Shown here: positions 27,935 to 45,808 of the stretch, piece by piece
Numbering within the stretch: the stretch's first letter is position 1
Layout: each line of letters starts with the position of its first letter
NCBI GenBank assembly: GCA_963738245.1
Contig: CAVTWB010000015.1
Span: 49,156-113,155, forward strand
Origin: an uncultured Verrucomicrobiae bacterium
GTDB lineage: Bacteria > Verrucomicrobiota > Verrucomicrobiia > Limisphaerales > UBA11358
Reading direction: 5' to 3'
DNA: 64,000 bases
Position numbers and translations under genes: made by a program
Notes under the pieces: model-generated
What the model was told of the DNA's origin: nothing
The model's input: the letters and a program-made list of their open reading frames with translations, nothing else
The model's database searches: none

Positions 27935-28475
27935 AAATTGGGCGTGGCTGGTGAAAACGACGGTCGTTTCGTCATGTTTCCGCAGTTTCCAGGTGAAAAT
28001 GATGTTCGCGGCACTTGATTCCCACCGTTTTGGGTCAAAAATTCTGTCGTTTGACCCTGCTCCCGCCGTGGCTGGGCAAAAAAACCGGATTTCCTGCCCT
28101 CCCACGGCCGTGGCAGTGCGATTTGATTGGGCAAAACGGCCAACCACGGCGTGAACAGGGGTTTTGACCGGTCGTTGGACCCTCCCACGGCCATGGCACG
28201 GTGATTTGATTGGACAAAATGGCCGTTCACGGCGTGAACAGGCAATTTGGCCGGTCGTTTGGCCCTCCCACCGCCGTGACCGGGTGGAAAAAGCCAGTTT
28301 TTGGGTGTGCTCCCGCCGTGGATGGGTGAAAAATCCGGATTTTTCACCGTGCCACCGCCGTGGCCGGGTGGCAAAAGCAAACGTTGGGGATGGCCACTGC
28401 GGCGGGCGGGTAAAACAGCCGTCATGCCGGATGGAAATTGGCGTGGCTGTGAAGATGGTTGGTGAAACGTCGGGA
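27935..28475. repeat. Degenerate 41-42-bp tandem array B (~13 units)
   Basis: CCGCCGTGG-like core recurs with its CGTG at 27943, 28026, 28067, 28109, 28150, 28192, 28233, 28275, 28317, 28359, ~28401, 28442; 83-bp duplication 28101-28183/28184-28266. Confidence 0.85.
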
Positions 28476-31956: not shown

Positions 31957-32031
31957 ATTTACGATTTGCGATTCGCGATTTACGATTGGATTTGCAGTCG
32001 GCGCGTAAATCGTAAATCGTAAATCGTAAAT
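31957..32031. repeat. Inverted heptamer tandem repeats (ATTTACG)n...(CGTAAAT)4
   Basis: Seen directly; the last unit overlaps the ATG of the TerC gene. Confidence 0.85.
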
Positions 32032-33016
32032 GAATCCGATTCCAATCACACCGTGGCACTGGGCGGGATTCATTCTTTGCATCCTTTTTTTCCTTGCGCT
32101 GGACCTGGGACTGTTTCATCGCGGACCGCGCGTTGTCAAATTTGCGGAAGCCCTCGCGTGGAGCATCCTCTGGTTCGCGCTCGCCATGCTGTTCGCCGGC
32201 GCCCTGGCGTGTGCGCGCGGACACGAGGCGGCGGCGCAATTCACCGCCGGCTATCTCATCGAGCTGTCGCTTTCCCTCGACAACCTCATGGTGATCGCGC
32301 TCATTTTTTCCGCCTTCCGCGTGCCGGCGCAATTCCAGCATCGCGTCTTGTTTTGGGGCATCCTCGGCGCGCTCGTGATGCGCGGTGCGATGATCGCCGC
32401 CGGCGTGGCGCTCATTCGCGAATTTGACTGGGTGCTGTATGTGTTCGGCGTGTTCCTCGTTTTCACCGGCATCAAAATGCTTTTTGCCGGCGAGCAAACG
32501 GTCGAGCCGGAGAAAAACATCGTGCTGCGGTTCGTGAAAAAATTGTTTCCCGTCGCGCCGCAATTTGAAGGCGAAAAATTCTTCTCGCGGCTGAACCATC
32601 GTTTCGCGCTCACGCCGCTCGCGCTCGTGCTGGTGCTCGTCGAGACGACCGATCTGGTTTTCGCGGTGGATTCCGTGCCGGCGGTTTTTTCCATCACCAA
32701 GAACGCGTTCATCGTTTTCACCTCGAACGTCTTCGCCATTCTCGGCCTGCGCTCGATGTATTTCCTGCTGGCGGGCGCGCTCGGCTCATTCCGCTACCTG
32801 AAGATCGGCCTGTCCGTCGTGCTGGTTTTCGTCGGCGTGAAAATGCTGATTGATCCGCACGGCCAGCCCGAGAAATGGTTCCAGCTTGAAATTCCCACGA
32901 ACGTCTCGCTGATGGTCGTCGCGGCGGTCGTTTTGATTGCCATCGTCTTGTCCACGATGGTCGCCGAACGCGAAAAACGCACCGGGCAGTCCGGGCCAAA
33001 CCGCAACTCGAAATGA
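32030..33016 (+). CDS. TerC/Alx family membrane protein
   Basis: YLIELSLSLDN, QHRVLFWGILGALVMR, ETTDLVFAVDSVPA, SNVFAILGLRSMYF. Confidence 0.93.
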   Translation: MNPIPITPWHWAGFILCILFFLALDLGLFHRGPRVVKFAEALAWSILWFALAMLFAGALACARGHEAAAQFTAGYLIELSLSLDNLMVIALIFSAFRVPAQFQHRVLFWGILGALVMRGAMIAAGVALIREFDWVLYVFGVFLVFTGIKMLFAGEQTVEPEKNIVLRFVKKLFPVAPQFEGEKFFSRLNHRFALTPLALVLVLVETTDLVFAVDSVPAVFSITKNAFIVFTSNVFAILGLRSMYFLLAGALGSFRYLKIGLSVVLVFVGVKMLIDPHGQPEKWFQLEIPTNVSLMVVAAVVLIAIVLSTMVAEREKRTGQSGPNRNSK

Positions 33017-34755
33017 AATTCCGCTGGACGCTTGCGCCGCCGCAACCGCTGCTGGCCGGTCCGCTCGCCGCGGCGCTCAAAATTTCGCCGCTGCTCGCGC
33101 AATGCCTCCTCAACCGCGGCTTCAGCGAACCGCAAGTCATCGAAAATTTTCTCCAGCCGCGATTGAAAAATCTTGCCGACCCTTTTCTGCTGCCGAACAT
33201 GGCCGCCGCCGTCGAACGATTGCTCCGCGCCCGCGAACAAAACGAGCCGCTCGTCATTTTTGGCGATTACGACGTGGACGGCGTGACTTCCACCGCGCTG
33301 CTCACCGAGGTTTTGCGCGCGCTCGGCTGGCAGGTGGAATTTTATCTGCCGAACCGGATGGACGAGGGCTATGGCTTGAGCGCCGACGGTGTGGAAAACT
33401 GCCTGAACAAATTTCCGGTCAAATTGCTGCTCGCCGTGGATTGCGGTTCAACTGCGGTTGAAACAATTGCCTCGCTTCGCGTTCGCGGCATTGACGTGAT
33501 TGTTTTGGATCACCATCAAGTTTCGTCGCCCGCGCCAAATGCAGTTGCCTTGGTCAATCCACAGCTTGTCTTTACGCCGGAAATCGGAAATCGGAAATCG
33601 GAAATCGGAAATTTTCAGGAGCTTTGTTCCGCCGGCATCGCCTTCAAGCTCGCGCACGCGCTGGTGAAACGCGGACGCGAAATAAATTTGCCCGGCGCAG
33701 CGGATTTTGATTTGCGCCCGCTGCTGGATCTGGTCGCGCTCGGCACGATTGCGGATCTGGTTCCGCTCACCGGCGAAAACCGGATTCTGGCCACCGCCGG
33801 ACTTGAAAAACTGAACACAACCAAACGCGCCGGAATTCTTGCGTTGAAACAGGTCGCGCAATCGCCGGAAAAACTGGGCACGCACGACGTCGGCTTCCAG
33901 CTTGCGCCGCGCTTGAACGCCGCCGGCCGTCTGGAAACGGCGGAAGAATCACTATATTTGCTACTGGCTAAAAATTTCGAAGAAGCGCTGCCGCTGGCGC
34001 AAAATCTGGATTTGAGGAATCGCGAGCGGCAGAAAATTGAAAAGACGATTGTCGAGGAAGTCACGGGCGTGGTGCGCTCAAAGTTCGACGCGCAGAAAGA
34101 TTTTGTCATCGTCGAGGGCCAATTGCTCTGGCACATCGGCGTGGTCGGCATCGTGGCGTCGCGCGTGTTGTCGGAATTTTACCGGCCGACCATCATTATC
34201 GGCGGCGAAAACGGCCAGATGCGCGGTTCGGGCCGCAGCATCGCCGGCTTCGACCTGGCCGGTGCGTTGGGTGAATGCGACGACTTGCTCGTGCGTCACG
34301 GTGGTCACGCAATGGCGGCGGGCTTGAGCATTTTGCCGGAGAAAATTGATCTGCTGCGGCAGCGGTTGAATGAACTGGCGCGGCGCAAACTCAAGCCGGA
34401 AGATTTGCTGCCGCCGCTGCGCCTGGACGCGGAAGTCGAATTGGACGAAATCAATTTTGAGTCGCTCGCCGAACTGGAGAAATTGAAACCGACGGGGCAG
34501 GGAAATCCCGGCGTGCAGTTCTGCGCCCGAAATTTGTTGCACGCAAAACCGATTCAACGCATGGGCGCGAACAAGCAGCACGTCAAACTTTGGGTGAAGG
34601 ATCAAAACGGAACCGCGCTCGAGGCGGTCTGGTGGAACGGCGGCAACAAATCGCTGCCGGTCGGCCAGTTCGATCTGGCGTTCGCACCAAGCATCAATGA
34701 ATTTAACGGCCGGCGCACGGTGCAGTTGAAGGTTTTGGACTGGGCGCCCGCTTGA
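33013..34755 (+). CDS. recJ: ssDNA exonuclease RecJ
   Basis: GDYDVDG, VDCG, LDHH, GTIAD, PRLNAAGR, GSGRS, GGHAMAAG. Confidence 0.97.
   Translation: MKFRWTLAPPQPLLAGPLAAALKISPLLAQCLLNRGFSEPQVIENFLQPRLKNLADPFLLPNMAAAVERLLRAREQNEPLVIFGDYDVDGVTSTALLTEVLRALGWQVEFYLPNRMDEGYGLSADGVENCLNKFPVKLLLAVDCGSTAVETIASLRVRGIDVIVLDHHQVSSPAPNAVALVNPQLVFTPEIGNRKSEIGNFQELCSAGIAFKLAHALVKRGREINLPGAADFDLRPLLDLVALGTIADLVPLTGENRILATAGLEKLNTTKRAGILALKQVAQSPEKLGTHDVGFQLAPRLNAAGRLETAEESLYLLLAKNFEEALPLAQNLDLRNRERQKIEKTIVEEVTGVVRSKFDAQKDFVIVEGQLLWHIGVVGIVASRVLSEFYRPTIIIGGENGQMRGSGRSIAGFDLAGALGECDDLLVRHGGHAMAAGLSILPEKIDLLRQRLNELARRKLKPEDLLPPLRLDAEVELDEINFESLAELEKLKPTGQGNPGVQFCARNLLHAKPIQRMGANKQHVKLWVKDQNGTALEAVWWNGGNKSLPVGQFDLAFAPSINEFNGRRTVQLKVLDWAPA
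33578..33612 (+). repeat. (CGGAAAT)5 heptamer tract inside recJ
   Basis: Five perfect copies encoding PEIGNRKSEIGN between VNP and ELCSAG. Confidence 0.9.
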
Positions 34756-39476: not shown

Positions 39477-41183
39477 CTATGATTTGCCCGGCTCGCCGAG
39501 CAGCACGCTGGGGCCGTGGTAATCCGGGGCCGCATAGAATGGCGGAAAATTGGCCGTCGCCACCGCCACCGAGGGCTTCTTCGGATCCAAAATCGCAACG
39601 CCAAAGCTGCAATTCGGCGGACACACATGCTCGGCCACCACCACGAGATCCTGTTCCAGCTCCGACCCGGTTTCGCCCGTGATCAGCAGCCCGATGATGT
39701 AGCTGGTCTCACCGGATTTTGGCGGGGGCGACTGGCGGAACAGCCAAGCCGCCCGCGCGAGCGGCTTGCCTCGCAGAAATTCAAACAGCGGCTGGATGAA
39801 ATCCGTCGGGTAATCCGCCGCGTCCACGATCTCCGACGGGCGCCGCACCTTTTCCACCGGGGGCAGCAGCTTGAAGACGGAGCCGTCCCACAATTCGCGC
39901 ACCCGGTCCTGGTTCAGCACCATCCCGCCCGGCACGCAGCCGGGATTGATCACCACCTTGTAATCATGGGTGTGCCCGGTCAGGCAATGGAACAGCTCCA
40001 GCCCTTTCATTTCGACGACCGTATGCGGCATGGCCCACCGCTTGGTGACTTTAAGCGCCTGCTCCGCCCGCTCCAGCGAGGTGAAAATTGGAATGTGGTC
40101 TTCCTGCCCGTTGGTCCAGACATCGAAAAGCATCCGGTCGCCGTTCCCCACCTTCATCATGCCCACCATCTCCGGATGGTAGGGTGCCAGAAATACCAAA
40201 ACAGATTCCCTCAACTGCCGGAACAGCTCCCGGCTGGCCGGCGTCCATTTGGCCGCAGCGAAGTAGGCCCGTTCCAAATCATTGACCGGTTCCCATTCGC
40301 TGCCTTCGGGTGCGTCGGCCTCCGGCGCGGGTTCGGCGTCGGCATCGACGGGTGGTCCCGGCGTCACGTTGCATCGGACAAAGCCCGGCGCGGCATAAAA
40401 CTCCGGATATTCGCCCATGATGTCGATCAGCGCGGCATCGGTCGGATCCATGATCCAAAGGCGGCAGCGTTGCGGCGGCTGAAATGTTTCGTTGGCGACC
40501 CGCTCGATCTCCGTTTCCAGTTCCTTGGTGAAACTTTTCGTCACCAGCAGCCCCAGAACATAATCCGCATCGTCCGTGTCATATTCCGGCTCGTTCGGAT
40601 CGGGTTTTGCCTGGTCGCGGAACAGCCAGGCGGCGCGCACTTCGGGATGGGCCGCCAGCAGGGGCGGCATGGCCTTGACCAGTTCCGGGGGGAAATGCAT
40701 GGAACCGAACATGATCAGCTTGCCCAACGCAATTGCACCTGGAGTGGGCGGCACGATGATGGAGCCATCGGCCAGACCCTCCAGGTGTTCCTCCTTTAAT
40801 TCGAGCGCGCCCGAGCTGCACGCGGGATTGACGATGACGTTGAGCTTGTTTTTTTGCTGCGCCAACGACTCAAACAACACCTTGCCGTCAACTTGCTGAT
40901 ATTCCAGCTCCTCGCGCTTCTGCCGGAGCGTCTTGATCGCCTCGTTTGCGCGTGCGGCGCAGGAAAACACCGGGATGAACTGCCTGCCCCCGTTGTTCCA
41001 GGTGGTCAATGTGAGGTGGTTTTCATCGTCGGATTTCAGGCGCGGCACCAGCTCCTTCGGACGCGGCTTCAAGATCGTCAATTTGGACTTCAGCAGTTGT
41101 TTGAAGAAGGGGATGTTCTCCTCCCCGTGTCCCGTGGCGCGGGCGATGGCCCGCTCCAGATCATTTTGAGGTGCCGAGGTCAT
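39477..41183 (-). CDS. Tandemly duplicated SseB/SseB_C-like protein
   Basis: Two repeats of NDLERA...IPV/IFS/T..RA...VINPxC...AAWLFR...YV/ILGLL...FYAAP; start at MTSAPQNDLERA. Confidence 0.7.
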   Translation of the reverse strand: MTSAPQNDLERAIARATGHGEENIPFFKQLLKSKLTILKPRPKELVPRLKSDDENHLTLTTWNNGGRQFIPVFSCAARANEAIKTLRQKREELEYQQVDGKVLFESLAQQKNKLNVIVNPACSSGALELKEEHLEGLADGSIIVPPTPGAIALGKLIMFGSMHFPPELVKAMPPLLAAHPEVRAAWLFRDQAKPDPNEPEYDTDDADYVLGLLVTKSFTKELETEIERVANETFQPPQRCRLWIMDPTDAALIDIMGEYPEFYAAPGFVRCNVTPGPPVDADAEPAPEADAPEGSEWEPVNDLERAYFAAAKWTPASRELFRQLRESVLVFLAPYHPEMVGMMKVGNGDRMLFDVWTNGQEDHIPIFTSLERAEQALKVTKRWAMPHTVVEMKGLELFHCLTGHTHDYKVVINPGCVPGGMVLNQDRVRELWDGSVFKLLPPVEKVRRPSEIVDAADYPTDFIQPLFEFLRGKPLARAAWLFRQSPPPKSGETSYIIGLLITGETGSELEQDLVVVAEHVCPPNCSFGVAILDPKKPSVAVATANFPPFYAAPDYHGPSVLLGEPGKS

Positions 41184-41188
41184 GGGTT

Positions 41189-41905
41189 CTACGGCGTTTT
41201 GGCCGGGGTCGCCGTCGGGGCGGGCGCGGGTGGCGGTGTGCTGGTGGAAGGCGTGTAGGTGGTGGGAACGGTGCTGCGGATCATGTCGCCTTCCGCCGTG
41301 CCGACGGGGAAAATCCGCGTGGCGTCCGCATACCACGCCACGTTCACGGCTTCGAGGCCGCTGCACATTTGATCGAGCTTGGCGGACTGCTCGTGGCTGG
41401 CCGAATCCGCGTTGGTGAACGTCGTCTGCAAATCCTCCGCGCACTGTTTGCGGAGCGTTTTCAACGCCGCCAGCGTGTTGGCCGGGGTGGGGCTCCACGT
41501 GGGGGCCAGTTGGTTCCACGCCGATTCCCAGGCCAGCGCTTCGGTGAGGATTTTCTCGGTGGTCTTGCCGGTGGCGCGGAGGCCGGCCAGCACCGCGAGG
41601 CTGGCGGGGTCGTTGCGGAATTTGTTTTTCGCCATGTTCAGCCCCTGCACCGTGAACTGGTGCAAGGCGTTCAACTGCGCCCGCCAGGTGCCGTAAGCGC
41701 CGTCGCGAGTGCGATGGGCCTGGTCGGCGATTTCCTCCTGTCCGACCACCGGCGGGGTGCTGCTGCTGTTGCCGGTGATGGTTTCCAACTGCGTTTGCAT
41801 CTGGTCGGGGGTCGCATCCGGCCACGACCACTTGGTGTCCACCTGTCGCGCCGCACTGATGGTCTTTATGGCGCGGTCAACGCTGAACTGGTTGTCCGTT
41901 TTCAT
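41189..41905 (-). CDS. Hypothetical helical protein with Pro/Thr-rich tail
   Basis: AAAGGA RBS; host-like codon usage; 5 bp upstream of the SseB-like gene. Confidence 0.8.
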   Translation of the reverse strand: MKTDNQFSVDRAIKTISAARQVDTKWSWPDATPDQMQTQLETITGNSSSTPPVVGQEEIADQAHRTRDGAYGTWRAQLNALHQFTVQGLNMAKNKFRNDPASLAVLAGLRATGKTTEKILTEALAWESAWNQLAPTWSPTPANTLAALKTLRKQCAEDLQTTFTNADSASHEQSAKLDQMCSGLEAVNVAWYADATRIFPVGTAEGDMIRSTVPTTYTPSTSTPPPAPAPTATPAKTP

Positions 41906-41949
41906 GATTTTCCTTTGGTTGCTGCGCTGGTTTATCCGCAGCCACTACC

Positions 41950-42035
41950 TCTTTACTTCAAAGGGCGCGTCCAGTCAATAGTTAAATTTAATAAATAACA
42001 GATAAAACATATATAAACTAATAATAATCATAATG
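41950..42035 (-). promoter_or_regulatory. AT-rich UP-like tract and putative promoter
   Basis: ~60 bp almost pure A/T, then TTGACT-17 bp-TAAAGA on the minus strand. Confidence 0.45.
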
Positions 42036-42109
42036 GAAGTGAATGCGGGCGCATCGCCGCCGCAACTGGTGGGCATGGGCAACCGCAAAAAGCGCGTGCG
42101 GATGGGAAG

Positions 42110-42361
42110 AATCGGCAAACGGCGATGGCCGGAACACGAACAGCCGGATTCCCAATACGAACAGCCGCGCCGCCAATACAAACGGTCGTAACCGGAACCC
42201 AAACGGCGCGGCCCGGAATACGAACGGGGCAGGGCGGAACACCAACGGCGCTGGCCGGAATACGAACGGATAGACCTGGAATACAAACGGAGTAGGGCGA
42301 AATACAAACGGCGGCAGCCGGAATAGGAACAGACCCGCCGGGAACACAAGCCGTCGCCGCC
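42110..42361. repeat. Degenerate 21-bp tandem array C (12 units)
   Basis: Core GGAAYACRAACRG at 42131, 42152, 42173, 42194, 42215, 42236, 42257, 42278, 42299, 42320, 42341, each followed by 8 variable nt. Confidence 0.92.
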
Positions 42362-42371
42362 GGAACGCGTT

Positions 42372-42448
42372 CGTAGCGGCTTTCGGCAGAAAGCCGCATT
42401 TCATCGGGCCAATTTGAGAATGCGGCGCTCTGCCGGGTTGCCGCCACG
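42372..42448. repeat. REP-like palindromic doublet
   Basis: CGTAGCGGCTTTCGGCAGAAAGCCGC...GCGGCGCTCTGCCGGGTTGCCGCCACG. Confidence 0.8.
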
Positions 42449-42449
42449 T

Positions 42450-43406
42450 TCACTCCGGTTTGTCCCGCAGCTCGCGCTCCAGTTGTTCAAAGGCCAGCCG
42501 CTCGGCCGGGGGCACCAGTCCCAGGCAAAGTTCGCGCAGTTCGCCCTCGTTCCATTCGCGCAAGGTCGCCTTCATGGCCGGTCGGGAATCGTAGATGCCC
42601 GGATGGCGGCGTTCATGCTCGGCGCAACGGATCATGTTGTGGGCGGTCTCGCGGGCATTGGCGAGCCAGCTCGCCTCAATGAACTTGTCCCACTCCGCAT
42701 CGAGCTGCCGCCAGCGGTCGAGGAAGTCCGCCTCCGGTTCATCGGCGAGCGACTGTAGTTGGTGCAGCAGATTGTCGAGCCGCCTTTCGCAGCCAACCTT
42801 CGTGCCGATATTTTTCGCAAGCTGACGCCGGCGCAGGCGGACGGCCCTGAGGATTGTGGCGCGCGACATGGGTTTGGCGTTTGGGTCGGGCGTGACTTGA
42901 ACCAGCAACGAGGCGATTTTGCCGGCGAGAGGGTCGTCGGGAATCTTCTCCGGGTCGTTCATGGCGTCCGCCTGTTTGGCCTGCGCCAAGGCGATCTCCA
43001 AAAACTTCCGGGCGGCGTCGGGCGCGGGTTTGCGGATGAGGCGCAGCCCGAATTCGTAGTTGCATTCCGCCTCCAGGTGGACGGTGGCCCACGAATGATT
43101 GTCGGCCGCAGACGGCGTCTTGTCCCGCCTGGATCTGATGGCGTTCAGTGCGTGGCAGAACGAGCCACTGGCATCTTCGTCATCGTCCTGGTGCAGGCCG
43201 AGGGCGTGCCAGCTCGCGGCTTCCTGCACGTCCCACTGGACGGCATGCATGATTTGCTGATAGAAGTTGTCAACCATCGCCAGGCGCTGTTGCTCGGACT
43301 GAAGCCCCCTCCGGCATTCGTCCATGTAAATCAGAAACGCCTTCGTCAGTTTGATGAGCAGGCGGCGGAGCTGCTGTTCTTTAGGTTGTTCTGGGGCGGC
43401 GTGCAT
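42450..43406 (-). CDS. Hypothetical all-alpha protein (possible TPR-like helices)
   Basis: 318-aa ORF, charged helical composition, host-like GC3. Confidence 0.7.
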   Translation of the reverse strand: MHAAPEQPKEQQLRRLLIKLTKAFLIYMDECRRGLQSEQQRLAMVDNFYQQIMHAVQWDVQEAASWHALGLHQDDDEDASGSFCHALNAIRSRRDKTPSAADNHSWATVHLEAECNYEFGLRLIRKPAPDAARKFLEIALAQAKQADAMNDPEKIPDDPLAGKIASLLVQVTPDPNAKPMSRATILRAVRLRRRQLAKNIGTKVGCERRLDNLLHQLQSLADEPEADFLDRWRQLDAEWDKFIEASWLANARETAHNMIRCAEHERRHPGIYDSRPAMKATLREWNEGELRELCLGLVPPAERLAFEQLERELRDKPE

Positions 43407-43448
43407 AAATTTTAATGATTGTCTTTTATCGGGCGGGGCGGGGCCGGG

Positions 43449-45808
43449 TCATGGCCCGCGCAACGTCTGGGTGCGGCCGGAGTCCGGCAGGGTGAGATGC
43501 ACGATGGAATTAAACGTCTCGCCGTTCAGCCGGTGGCCGTGGTCATCCACCAGGTTCCAGAGGACGTTGAACTCGCCGTTCGTGGTGCTGCCGGAGAGCG
43601 TCTTGAGATGCACGCCGTTGGTGGTGATGCATTCGATGGAAAAATTTCCGTTCGGCTCCGGCAGCCGGGCATGAAAGGTCGCGCCCAATTCAACGTCATA
43701 GGTCGAGGAGTCGAGACTGAACTGGCAGAGGTTGCTGGTCGTAACGGCAATGGCGGGGCCGCAGCCCAGGTAATATCCGCCCCGTTCATTTGTCCATAGC
43801 AGCCGGGCCTGGACGGCGTGCGTGCGGGGCGGGTCGAAGATCGTGTGCCAGACGAGCAGAAATCGCCGTTGGTGGCGCGGTCGCAATCCTGCACTTTGGC
43901 TCCGCTGTCTGGCTCGTCCACGTTTCCCGGACTTGCATCCACCATCAGGGTCAATCCGCCCCGGTTGGTGACGACATCGTAGCTGACGGGAAATTCAAAG
44001 GTGAGGTCTTCCGGTTCCTGCGCCGGTGATAATTTGCCGGGGCGTCAGCAGTTCGCCGAGCGAAAGCTGGTTGGTGCCGGCGGTGCCGGCGTTCCGAATG
44101 GCGTCATTGACCGGCCGGCCTTGATAGGACATGCCGCTCGCGTCCGGCGACCATTTCATTGACAAAATCTTTGCGACGCGGGCCTGGCGCAAGGGAGATT
44201 GTTTCCAATCCTCTACGGATTCCTGCTGCATCTCTCGATAATTGCGTGATTGCTCGGCGCGCTCTTCCTGCTGCTTCAAATCTTGGATGGAAGTTTTGCT
44301 GGCCGGCAGCGGCCAGACGATGTCGGCTTGTGGCGGTGCTTCATAAAGTGTGCCGCCGCCGCGAAGTTTGGTCTCCCATTCGTGTGATGGCAGTATCCCG
44401 CCGTCATCCACGCCATCCAGCCCGATGGAATAAAGAAGAAAATGTCCATCATTTGTCGAGCCGGTAGCGCAGCGGCTGGCCGTCCATGAAGTCCGGCAGC
44501 GGCGTCTTGAGAAATTCCGGCGTGAGTGCGGCGAGCGTTGCCGGATAGGCGCCAAATTTTTCGCGATACCTTTCGAGCGCGAGGGCGGTGATGATGATTC
44601 GCCGTCGCGCTTCGGCCTCGGCAGCACGCCCAAGGAAGCTGGAATTGAATTTCATGAAGGCCGTGTTCATTTCGTGCAAGTTCATCATGGCCTGATATGG
44701 GCGACGAATACTTTGACCGGAAGAAAATCCGGTTGGTCACGCCGGGCAGCGAGCGCATCTGTGACCAATTGGTGGCTTGAATGGCGTTGCGGAGTTCCAC
44801 CTCGCGGTCGTGATAGAACAGCAGCAGCGCCTGCTGATCGTCAAGGCTGCCATGCTGGCGGTAGGCGAGCTGGTTCCAGTTGTAATTGAGCTTCCACCAG
44901 ATTTGCATGGGATTTTGAAGCGCCGCCTTGCAAAATTCAATGAAAGTAAAGTTGTCATTCATAGAACGCTGGCGCTCGGATTCGCACATCGCCACGGCAC
45001 TGGCGCGCTGGAAGGCGGCCGTCTCCGGCAGATTCGTGAAAAAATTCGCGGACTCCCATTCCTGCTGCAGCCGCGCGAGCTGGTCGTCGGTCCAGCCGTT
45101 GGTCTGAAGCGCCTGCCACGTGATATTGAAGGCGAGAGTCATGTCGTTCAAGCGGACGAGGTGCGAAATCTCCACCGGTTCCGGCTCATACGCGGTGACC
45201 AGCCGGGTCGCCGCCAGAAGATTGGTCCACGCGCCGGATGGATTGCCGTCATGCAGGGCCAGCACGGTGCGGTCGCCAAACGTCTGGGTGAGATTTTTCA
45301 TCACCGCGAGATGCGGCAGCAACATGGCGCTGCCACGACTGGCATCGAGGTTGAACTGGATGGGGCCGGACAGGATGGCCGCACAGGCGGAGTCGAAGAG
45401 CGATTGTTTCTGGTTGATCGCGTTACGAAATTCGTCCCAAGAGAGCTGGTCGTTGTCGTCATAGCTTGAGCGGTTTCTCCCTGGCAATGAAGCCAGCTTC
45501 CAAACCACCATCGCGGAGTCGTTCCCGACAGGTGGCAGGAGATTAAGATTCACGGGAAATGAGCGAGAGAAGCTGTTGGTGGCGGTATTTTTCAAAACAG
45601 CTTCGCGCGTGCGCAACTCCGGCGTGGTGGAGAGGTCAAAGTCGGCGAGATCCGTCTTGAAGCCCTGCTCCCGCAACGATTGCCGGGTCTCCGCCAACGC
45701 GCGGGAGGCGGCACCATTGGAGGGCGGCAGGCGTAACAACATCAGCCAGCCCGCCAGCAGCAGAATTGCGAGCAGAACCCAAAGCAAATTTCCCGGACGA
45801 TGTTTCAT
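43449..45808 (-). CDS. Large membrane-anchored hypothetical protein (multiple frameshifts)
   Basis: N-term TM; pieces in ORFs 44276-46249, 44449-44688, 43995-44633 and 43449-43886 read as one protein, incl. ALERYR..GAYPATLAALTPEFL..PDFMDGQPLRYR and FLLYSIGLDGVDDGG (pseudopilin GspG C-term-like). Confidence 0.6.

Follow-up and report, generated by a model that had tools for sequence, protein, structure and literature searches.

Array C, a tandem array of twelve 21-bp units in a 64,000-nucleotide stretch of DNA (hereafter the window) from an uncultured Verrucomicrobiae bacterium (contig CAVTWB010000015.1, positions 49,156 to 113,155 of the forward strand), forms a conserved module with an adjacent gene that encodes a protein of 238 amino acids (aa). 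The linkage between array and gene is tight and ancient, and constitutes a new fact. Array C is periodic and non-coding, its presence is retained among relatives while its core sequence changes, it gains and loses whole units, and it belongs to a genome-wide class of arrays with periods of 21 bp or a multiple thereof (21n). The explanation favoured here, which is quite possible if short of probable, is that of a non-coding cis-regulatory platform, in which sites phased every two helical turns would carry a motif specific to the locus and would be tuned by the number of units. We infer that such a platform would act at the level of DNA, be bound by a protein, and affect expression, and the position of the promoter is likewise an inference.

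Homologues of the 238-aa protein were located in 10 of 101 genomes of the genus (the present genome included), at 16 places, and at all 15 of those with enough upstream DNA the strongest upstream self-similarity occurred at a lag of 21 or 42, locus L038 having been left out as its upstream DNA is cut short. Two collection scans (metagenome and genome-collection), that of genome contigs made with a seven-row alignment, added a further 9 and 29 loci. After de-duplication, 32 of 35 homologous loci displayed an upstream periodic array, called when the best lag was 21, 42, or 63 and the score at least 0.5, as opposed to 31 of 598 control upstream regions (5.2%) from the organism's own genome with a comparable periodic array. 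The three loci without an array call were L048 (weak, 0.47), L062 (0.496, barely below the threshold), and the metagenomic locus L060, where the array (~1600-2250) has been replaced by unrelated DNA with an open reading frame (ORF) on the opposite strand, the sole clear array loss in the family. Array presence is retained among homologues down to ~31% protein identity. The family arrays comprise a median of 8 units (range 4-15), and between them and the start region of the gene lie a median of 203 bp (range 30-319). Despite this persistence, the core sequence differs among clades and among paralogues within one genome, being GGAAYACRAACGG in array C, AATACGAACA in L028, YACGCCGGA in L029, L037, and L056, CGTAGGCG in L031 to L033, CCAAGSCCGTTG in L034, L035, and L041, and CTTCGGAGC..CGCCG in L039. 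A contiguous conserved block beside freely varying positions is present in nearly every family array. The contiguous core of each array, its persistence in spite of motif turnover, and the different motifs of paralogues together fit the interpretation of a phased-site platform.

Along the plus strand, each unit of array C consists of the core GGAAYACRAACGG followed by eight variable bases; the units run head-to-tail, position 42110 being the start of a half-unit ahead of 11 full cores. When up to two mismatches were allowed, the pattern GGAAYACRAACRG gave 22 matches in the window, compared to a mean of 9.5 in shuffled sequences (sd 2.95, maximum 18), and 11 of these fall on the plus strand at 42131, 42152, and onwards to 42341 in exact 21-bp steps with no indel. 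A 21-bp grid of cores had already been described in a first-pass annotation of this DNA, as had ten 8-nt spacers, each of which was recovered as listed there. Tandem Repeats Finder (TRF) returned a period of 21 (6.3 to 7.2 copies) for the array as well as higher-order periods of 42 and 63. A two-core pattern matched seven times in the whole 3.44-Mb assembly, always inside array C (reversed control: 0), and the array DNA gave only a single 28-nt match among the 41 genomes of relatives searched. Given that 21 bp is the smallest integer number of base pairs that makes a whole number of 10.5-bp helical turns (namely two), the cores would face one side of the B-DNA helix, a geometry shared with iterons, tandem operators, and repeat centromeres. 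The further deduction that constant unit length implies selection on spacing does not hold, since whole-unit duplication alone already yields constant length. The features at and around the array are collected in Table 1.

Table 1. Location of array C and of the features that surround it in the window.
Feature	Position	Strand	Remarks
SseB-like protein (PF07179 and PF14581)	39477..41180	-	downstream of the 238-aa gene
238-aa all-helical protein, Pro/Thr-rich tail, no known family	41189..41905	-	gene linked to the array
Candidate promoter	41950..41978	-	weak; TTGACT (41973-41978), 17-nt spacer, TAAAGA (41950-41955)
A+T-rich tract between gene and array	41975..42035		~87-90% A+T; best 40-bp window 0.90
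Pre-array segment	42036..42109		blocks GGCATGGG..CAAAAGCCC.TGCGGA.GG.AAAAATC conserved in four closest relatives (alignment)
Non-conserved ORF, 76 aa, heptad RNTNGxx	42043..42273	+	in-frame TAG 42271-42273 inside unit 7; judged not a gene
Array C, tandem 21-bp array, 12 units	42110..42361		63-bp higher-order period
REP-like doublet	42372..42448		dispersed genus repeat, at the upstream gene's 3' end

The manner in which the units turn over can be read from close relatives. The closest ortholog, L052 (85% protein identity), carries the same array, collinear unit by unit and differing by point changes and two internal 21-bp indels, and over ~900 bp a single unit, belonging to a set of three identical 21-bp copies, is all that sets L057 and L058 apart, a variation of unit number between close strains by which promoter variable-number tandem repeats (VNTRs) are recognised. 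In the young arrays L041, L057, and C6:174453 of the present genome, units are identical over all 21 bases, and the so-called spacers are therefore drifted copies. Turnover is accordingly by slippage or unequal exchange and not by polar acquisition.

These findings bear directly on the alternative of a CRISPR-like (clustered regularly interspaced short palindromic repeats) or short-guide repeat-spacer array, a reading whose likelihood is practically negligible. While a constant period with a conserved and a variable part is common to both, CRISPR arrays are composed of near-identical repeats of about 23-55 nt with unrelated spacers, and array C is not so built: its degenerate core spans only 13 nt, the 63-bp higher-order period shows adjacent spacers to be related, the spacers of L041 and L057 are identical, and the indels (own/L052; L057/L058) are internal with no polar addition at one end. 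Cas1 (PF01867) found no match in the present assembly, which is 83.6% complete, the known-genome control having matched 7 of 14. The CRISPR-like reading was rejected on the internal gain and loss of whole units, the identical young spacers, and the Cas1 result. The first-pass annotation had considered the units too short for CRISPR and had noted no cas gene in the window; the short-guide array that it entertained is contradicted by young units identical over 21 nt, and the unit-by-unit comparison that it had proposed between relatives uncovered internal whole-unit indels and point changes instead of polar acquisition.

A coding repeat, in the form of either a small plus-strand heptad protein (RNTNGxx) divergent from the 238-aa gene or an open minus-strand frame, is likewise very improbable. 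In the frame of the 76-aa ORF, the variable core positions are synonymous (AAY for Asn, ACN for Thr, GGN for Gly), the information content per unit is lowest at most third codon positions, and the same N-T frame is open through the L027 and L028 arrays; when the present locus is compared with L052, the ratio of nonsynonymous to synonymous differences (pN/pS) of the heptad frame is 0.45, the lowest of the six frames (neighbouring gene, 0.36), and at least one plus frame is open in 28 of 33 family arrays. Nevertheless, the frame is closed in array C by an in-frame TAG where L052 has TTG. In L052, moreover, a 1-bp indel puts the ATG out of register with the array frame; by manual reading of that sequence, the ATG frame ends after 8 codons, and the array frame itself has a TGA 12 codons ahead of unit 1 and lacks any ATG, GTG, or TTG upstream of unit 7. 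Among L026, L027, and L028 the N-terminal parts of the putative ORF are unrelated, and neither its start nor its stop is conserved in orthologs. Between L028 and L054 the heptad frame has a pN/pS of 0.81 as opposed to 0.07 for the 238-aa gene, and the minus-strand frames of the array range from 0.9 to 1.7 between the present locus and L052. Stops occur in all plus frames of 5 of 33 family arrays (in all six frames of L031 and L032 when wider bounds are taken) and in all six frames of 12 of 70 periodic regions genome-wide. It had been anticipated that third-position variation in one frame, together with translation of a heptad peptide, would reduce the array to a coding repeat; the third-position lean exists in one plus frame, but that frame is broken by a stop in array C and lacks a start codon in L052. 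The coding heptad repeat was rejected on the TAG in the array and on the indel, TGA, and missing start of L052, the pN/pS ratios of the two pairs, 0.45 (with one stop) and 0.81, pointing less clearly either way.

Array C is one of many, and the existence of ~58 arrays of period 21n in one genome is a second new fact. TRF identified 80 tandem arrays of at least 100 bp with a period of at least 7 in the present assembly, 58 of which have a period of 21, 42, 63, or 84 (n = 22, 22, 8, and 6); a period of 41 occurs eight times and periods of 20 or 22 not at all, and autocorrelation scans of the assembly agree with this census. The bias towards 21n without 20 or 22 fits a unit composed of an integral number of helical turns. 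Cores are specific to a single 21n array or to a small group of them, and the period alone is shared. Most of the arrays lie outside gene calls made with a crude codon-usage caller; since this caller put even the 238-aa gene on the wrong strand, the genome-wide orientation counts are rough. Unrelated housekeeping genes occur among the neighbours of the arrays, namely those for a release factor, NDH-2, MTHFR, BioB, carbonic anhydrase, CoaE, MiaA, and AspRS. Clustering of the flanking ORFs yielded a family of 11 (~200-230 aa; helical N-terminal part, C-terminal fn3 domain), every one with an array on its 5' side, and a second family in which 6 of 7 are so placed, with several ORF pairs likewise, the ORFs concerned measuring about 200 aa; no homology between these two families and the 238-aa family was detected with hhalign. 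Among relatives sampled at 400 kb each, five from within the genus and one from outside (G176, of another family), 21n arrays numbered 6 in G110, 3 in G053, 2 in G046, and 0 in G017, G048, and G176, the present genome having ~6.7 per 400 kb; the two sampled genomes with a relative of the 238-aa protein have the most, six samples being too few for a correlation. Examples in the present genome are C6:174453-174879, C10:313928-314323, and C14:288750-289217, and some of its 21n arrays are near-perfect with up to 20 identical units.

A more far-reaching scenario, which must be considered rather unlikely, holds that some members of the genus possess an as yet undescribed class of chromosomal "array-gene cassettes", each made up of a small gene from one of several unrelated families and a private 21-bp phased array that would be recognised by the cassette's own product. 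The gene families would comprise the 238-aa helical proteins, the ~200-aa helical proteins with an fn3 domain, and others, under an iteron-like, self-specific control insulated between paralogues, with dosage set by unit number. Should cassettes spread by duplication or mobility and leave orphan arrays behind, the ~58 arrays of period 21n would be accounted for. Spread of this sort is suggested by three near-identical copies (98.5-99.6%) of a ~1.9-kb array-plus-gene module at C9:174.2-176.2k, C11:128.7-130.5k, and C14:265.3-267.3k (L098, L110), in which a 21-bp array (core CCATATTGACCGG) is combined with a 208-aa ORF comprising a helical part plus an fn3 domain, whose paralogous ORFs elsewhere also come after arrays.

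Returning to array C itself, it sits between two minus-strand genes, the 238-aa ORF, whose start lies 205 bp beyond the array, and a 318-aa ORF (42450-43406) to which no family was assigned and which ends at a repetitive extragenic palindromic (REP)-like doublet. The latter comprises a hairpin, GCGGCTTTC-GGCA-GAAAGCCGC, with a 9-bp stem (42377-42398) and a second arm. The doublet had been reported as abutting the array; it is real and dispersed, with 19 occurrences in the present genome and presence in 20 of the 41 genomes searched. At the orthologous place in L052 the 318-aa ORF is missing, and the REP directly precedes the homologue of the window from ~43430 onward. The eight arrays of period 41 in the present genome could be related to the REP doublet. 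On the other side of the array, the A+T-rich tract exists as first described, its "almost pure" composition (87-90% A+T) having been slightly overstated, and it may play the role of an UP-like element for the minus-strand gene. A CNTAAT box at its distal edge is conserved in the four closest relatives. The candidate promoter is directly gene-proximal to the tract; GTCAATAG is retained in the present locus, L052, and L053, the closest relatives thus sharing the TTGAC portion of the candidate. A consensus scan for terminators produced one terminator-like site within the array, no more than in shuffled sequences. Directly after the 238-aa gene, a single or duplicated SseB-like gene was encountered in the window and, among 11 related loci inspected, in five (L044, L048, L053, L055, and L062), which suggests that the two genes form a two-gene operon. 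The wider window is chromosomal and housekeeping in character (YajC, SecDF, TerC, RecJ, IspD, a tail-specific protease, TsaD, and HrpB).

The 238-aa family has 18 invariant columns across 15 sequences, and the predicted model of the present member (predicted local distance difference test, pLDDT, of 91) shows an elongated bundle of helices followed by a disordered Pro/Thr tail. No family was assigned by Pfam, NCBIfam, or PHROGs, and Foldseek searches of the PDB and BFVD with the model yielded nothing at E <= 0.001. Only generic helical bundles were returned by VIA-align, the best being BAR, YscO, FliJ, and LemA at Z scores of 8-9, and the protein falls into unnamed clusters of the Atlas, where the nearest named family, DUF6261 (0.86), is a lead only. 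When 300 further genomes of the phylum were searched with a profile, no homologue was found at E <= 1e-8.

Iteron origins are recognised by direct repeats of 17-22 bp that are phased and adjoin an A+T-rich region; array C shows this arrangement, and its motif co-varies with the neighbouring gene. The array could on these grounds be an iteron-type replication origin, or a partition centromere of the parC or sopC type, belonging to an integrated mobile element and bound by the adjacent protein, and the three near-identical copies of a 1.9-kb array-plus-gene module of another family in the same genome point in the same direction. This possibility is given very little weight, in view of the chromosomal housekeeping context (SecDF, RecJ, IspD, TsaD, HrpB), neighbours among which no Rep, ParA, ParM, or ParB-like family was recognised, a 238-aa protein with no winged-helix or ribbon-helix-helix match and no tblastn match in the phage collection, and the implausibility of dozens of such arrays in a genome.

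Along the minus strand, the parts of the module follow one another as the REP (at the 3' terminus of the gene upstream), the array, the A+T-rich tract, a possible promoter and 5' untranslated region (UTR), the gene for the 238-aa helical protein, and often the SseB-like gene. According to the regulatory interpretation favoured above, cooperative binding along one face of the helix, by a protein that the module might itself encode, would set the transcription of the downstream 238-aa gene, through a motif that is private to each locus and drifts along with the gene. Gain and loss of whole units in the array would make this output tunable. The iteron-like phased binding sites suggested by the first-pass annotation are compatible with the spacing of two turns, the contiguous core, and the recurrence at 32 of 35 loci, and this idea survives as an analogy with a presumptive binder.

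Several observations weigh against the regulatory platform and should be given due consideration. A sigma-70 consensus scan detected no promoter on either strand around the array, a TTGAC[AT] motif is present in only 7 of 33 family loci, and an A+T tract of at least 75% separates gene and array in only 17 of 33, so that the promoter position upstream of the 238-aa gene is not established. The array ends 30-50 bp from the start region in L040, L049, and L071, and could for this reason be transcribed there. No recognisable DNA-binding domain was found in the array-adjacent proteins, the 238-aa protein being a generic helical bundle with an approximately neutral charge (counted manually from the sequence). 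Duplication of units could pass on a 21-bp period with no selection involved. The arrays of L028 and L054 diverge at 34 of 252 positions (13.5%), close to the synonymous rate of the gene (pS 0.129), and no clear difference separates the core (13 of 120 changed) from the spacers (21 of 132), so that constraint over this span of time is weak. Upstream arrays are present at 1 of 13 orthologous loci of the carbonic anhydrase gene (absent at 12) and at 0 of 12 of the MTHFR gene, and some arrays lie between convergent genes or within an operon-like pair of ABC ATPase genes; many 21n arrays are therefore young and need not be regulatory.

Much of this would be expected of a functionless or selfish minisatellite, for which a mutational bias of the lineage would create and expand intergenic 21-bp duplications that persist through inheritance and turnover. 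Such an origin is unlikely on balance but far from negligible: the 58 arrays of the genome stand beside unrelated genes (convergent 3' ends included), those at two housekeeping genes are absent from nearly all orthologous loci, density varies among relatives from 6 to 0 per 400 kb, the L028/L054 divergence is near neutral, and whole-unit copy number changes between near-identical sequences. Neutral duplication and decay would not, however, predict a contiguous core beside free positions in nearly every array, nor do they sit well with an array kept upstream of 32 of 35 homologues, to ~31% protein identity, when 5.2% of controls have one, or with the enrichment of arrays 5' of particular small-gene families. 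Divergence between the present locus and L052 is 8.6% in units 1-5, 22-25% in units 6-10, and 35% in the 5' UTR region, for a gene pS of 0.22; parts of the array, namely units 1-5 in this pair, are thus under constraint, being below the synonymous divergence of the gene. For L028 and L054, divergence amounts to 4% in the region beside the gene start and to 29% in the A+T tract. Because of the divergences in both pairs, constraint is regarded as uneven and modest on short time scales; the presence of an array with a homogeneous core has nevertheless been kept across the whole family.

Alternatively, the array may be transcribed and work as RNA, either as a divergent non-coding RNA running from ~42040 on the plus strand to the REP hairpin or as a minus-strand leader or intercistronic segment, whose 12 motifs would bind many copies of an RNA-binding protein (as a sponge or scaffold) or modulate the fate of the mRNA. 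This is an outside prospect on a par with the minisatellite. It would account for the conservation of the pre-array segment and the CNTAAT box among the four closest relatives, and for the little room left for a promoter in L040, L049, and L071; a stable hairpin follows the array (z-score of -3.2 for the plus strand, that hairpin included), some 21n arrays lie between the genes of an operon-like pair, and the core of array C contains GGA. Conversely, no credible Rfam match was obtained on 41000-43500 at E up to 10 (the best, a plant microRNA model, scored 23.7 bits against a gathering score of 85), and none on the arrays of ten other loci, with Acido-Lenti-1 beside one only. No succession of repeated hairpins is seen in the predicted fold, shuffled sequences fold as well as the minus strand does (z -0.19), the CCG..CGG mini-stem of the unit is missing in L028, the consensus scan found a promoter on neither strand, and the cores of other family members lack GGA. 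A sponge RNA of the Csr/Rsm type was specifically rejected on the Rfam result, the lack of a hairpin series, and the many family cores without GGA. The Acido-Lenti-1 match (50.6 bits, gathering score 37) is situated at L092:1743-1788 on the minus strand (C6:174195-174240), ~210 bp from another 21-bp array.

Intrinsic curvature alone might also explain a fixed period, with bends in phase wrapping the upstream DNA around RNA polymerase in a sequence-independent manner, as 10.5 bp divides the period exactly and the cores differ between loci. In a wedge model with provisional parameters, 31 of 61 arrays fell below the matched 5th percentile and the class was more curved than random genomic DNA; the arrays did not, however, exceed periodised random 21-mers of genomic origin in curvature (p = 0.5), and array C was predicted to be straight (d/L 0.97). 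Curvature by itself is consequently held to be a highly unlikely explanation.

Other repeats were also noted in the window. CGTAAAT occurs four times at 31957-32031, leading straight into the ATG (32030) of a TerC-family gene, with inverted ATTTACG-like heptamers 40-70 bp upstream with which long hairpin pairing is possible. A perfect fivefold CGGAAAT (33578-33612) lies inside the predicted RecJ ORF (33013-34755), in the region of the DHH domain, and intergenic repeats of 83 bp and 42 bp with the motif CCCTCCCACGGCCRTGGCA occupy 28097-28378.

In the part of the literature available to us, no mention was found of intergenic arrays of 21-bp units in Verrucomicrobia or of the proteins treated here, and the word "undescribed" applies in that sense only. 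If the arrays are binding platforms, they would be to the chromosome, at many loci, what iterons and centromeres are to plasmids: long, helically phased arrays of sites, each with its own locus-specific motif, adjustable in unit number, and retained upstream of particular small genes over long evolutionary time. The 21n rule, seen in 58 of 80 long arrays of one genome, is a clean regularity open to testing and would reflect either a constraint of DNA geometry or an unknown, lineage-specific process that generates repeats. Several uncharacterised families of small proteins in a poorly studied phylum would thereby be marked as sharing a common regulatory architecture. Even the null reading is informative, for a bacterial genome producing minisatellites of one fixed unit length would be unusual.

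Comparison with known systems places these arrays in a recognisable neighbourhood. Iterons of plasmids such as R6K, RK2, pSC101, and P1 are direct repeats of 17-22 bp, spaced at about two turns beside an A+T tract and a gene, in 3-8 units. Array C resembles them in its direct repeats of about two turns beside an A+T tract and a gene, and in a sequence that co-varies with that gene between relatives, but it has 12 units and no recognisable Rep family, plasmid context, or sign of a replication function, and 21n arrays occur by the dozen on the chromosome beside several unrelated families of small genes. Partition centromeres (11 bp x 10 in R1 parC, 43 bp x 12 in F sopC) are similar in having many tandem phased units beside the operon served and a motif private to the system, whereas array C has a chromosomal, multi-copy setting without a ParA or ParM NTPase or a ParR or ParB adaptor nearby. 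Type III toxin-antitoxin systems, in which ToxI consists of a few near-identical units of 34-45 nt and the partner is a ToxN-type endoribonuclease, likewise place an array directly upstream of a small protein gene; array C has diverged 21-nt units and a helical-bundle protein without a family, and this candidate was rejected on the unit form and on the lack of a ToxN/AbiQ-type family in the 238-aa protein. The REP and bacterial interspersed mosaic element (BIME) families and the mycobacterial interspersed repetitive units (MIRU) are intergenic repeats with one consensus throughout a genome, and the 21n arrays are comparable in their many intergenic copies, their occasional position in operons, and their variable copy number, yet differ in sharing the period only, their sequence being private to each array or small group. 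Contingency loci contain promoter-proximal VNTRs, for instance the 7-bp repeats upstream of the Haemophilus hmw genes, and are matched by a position upstream of a gene and by a unit number that differs between the otherwise identical L057 and L058, but not by units that are long (21 bp), helically phased, internally diverged, and conserved across deep divergence. By this comparison, array C appears to be most like iterons, repeat centromeres, and promoter VNTRs, yet a member of none of these classes.

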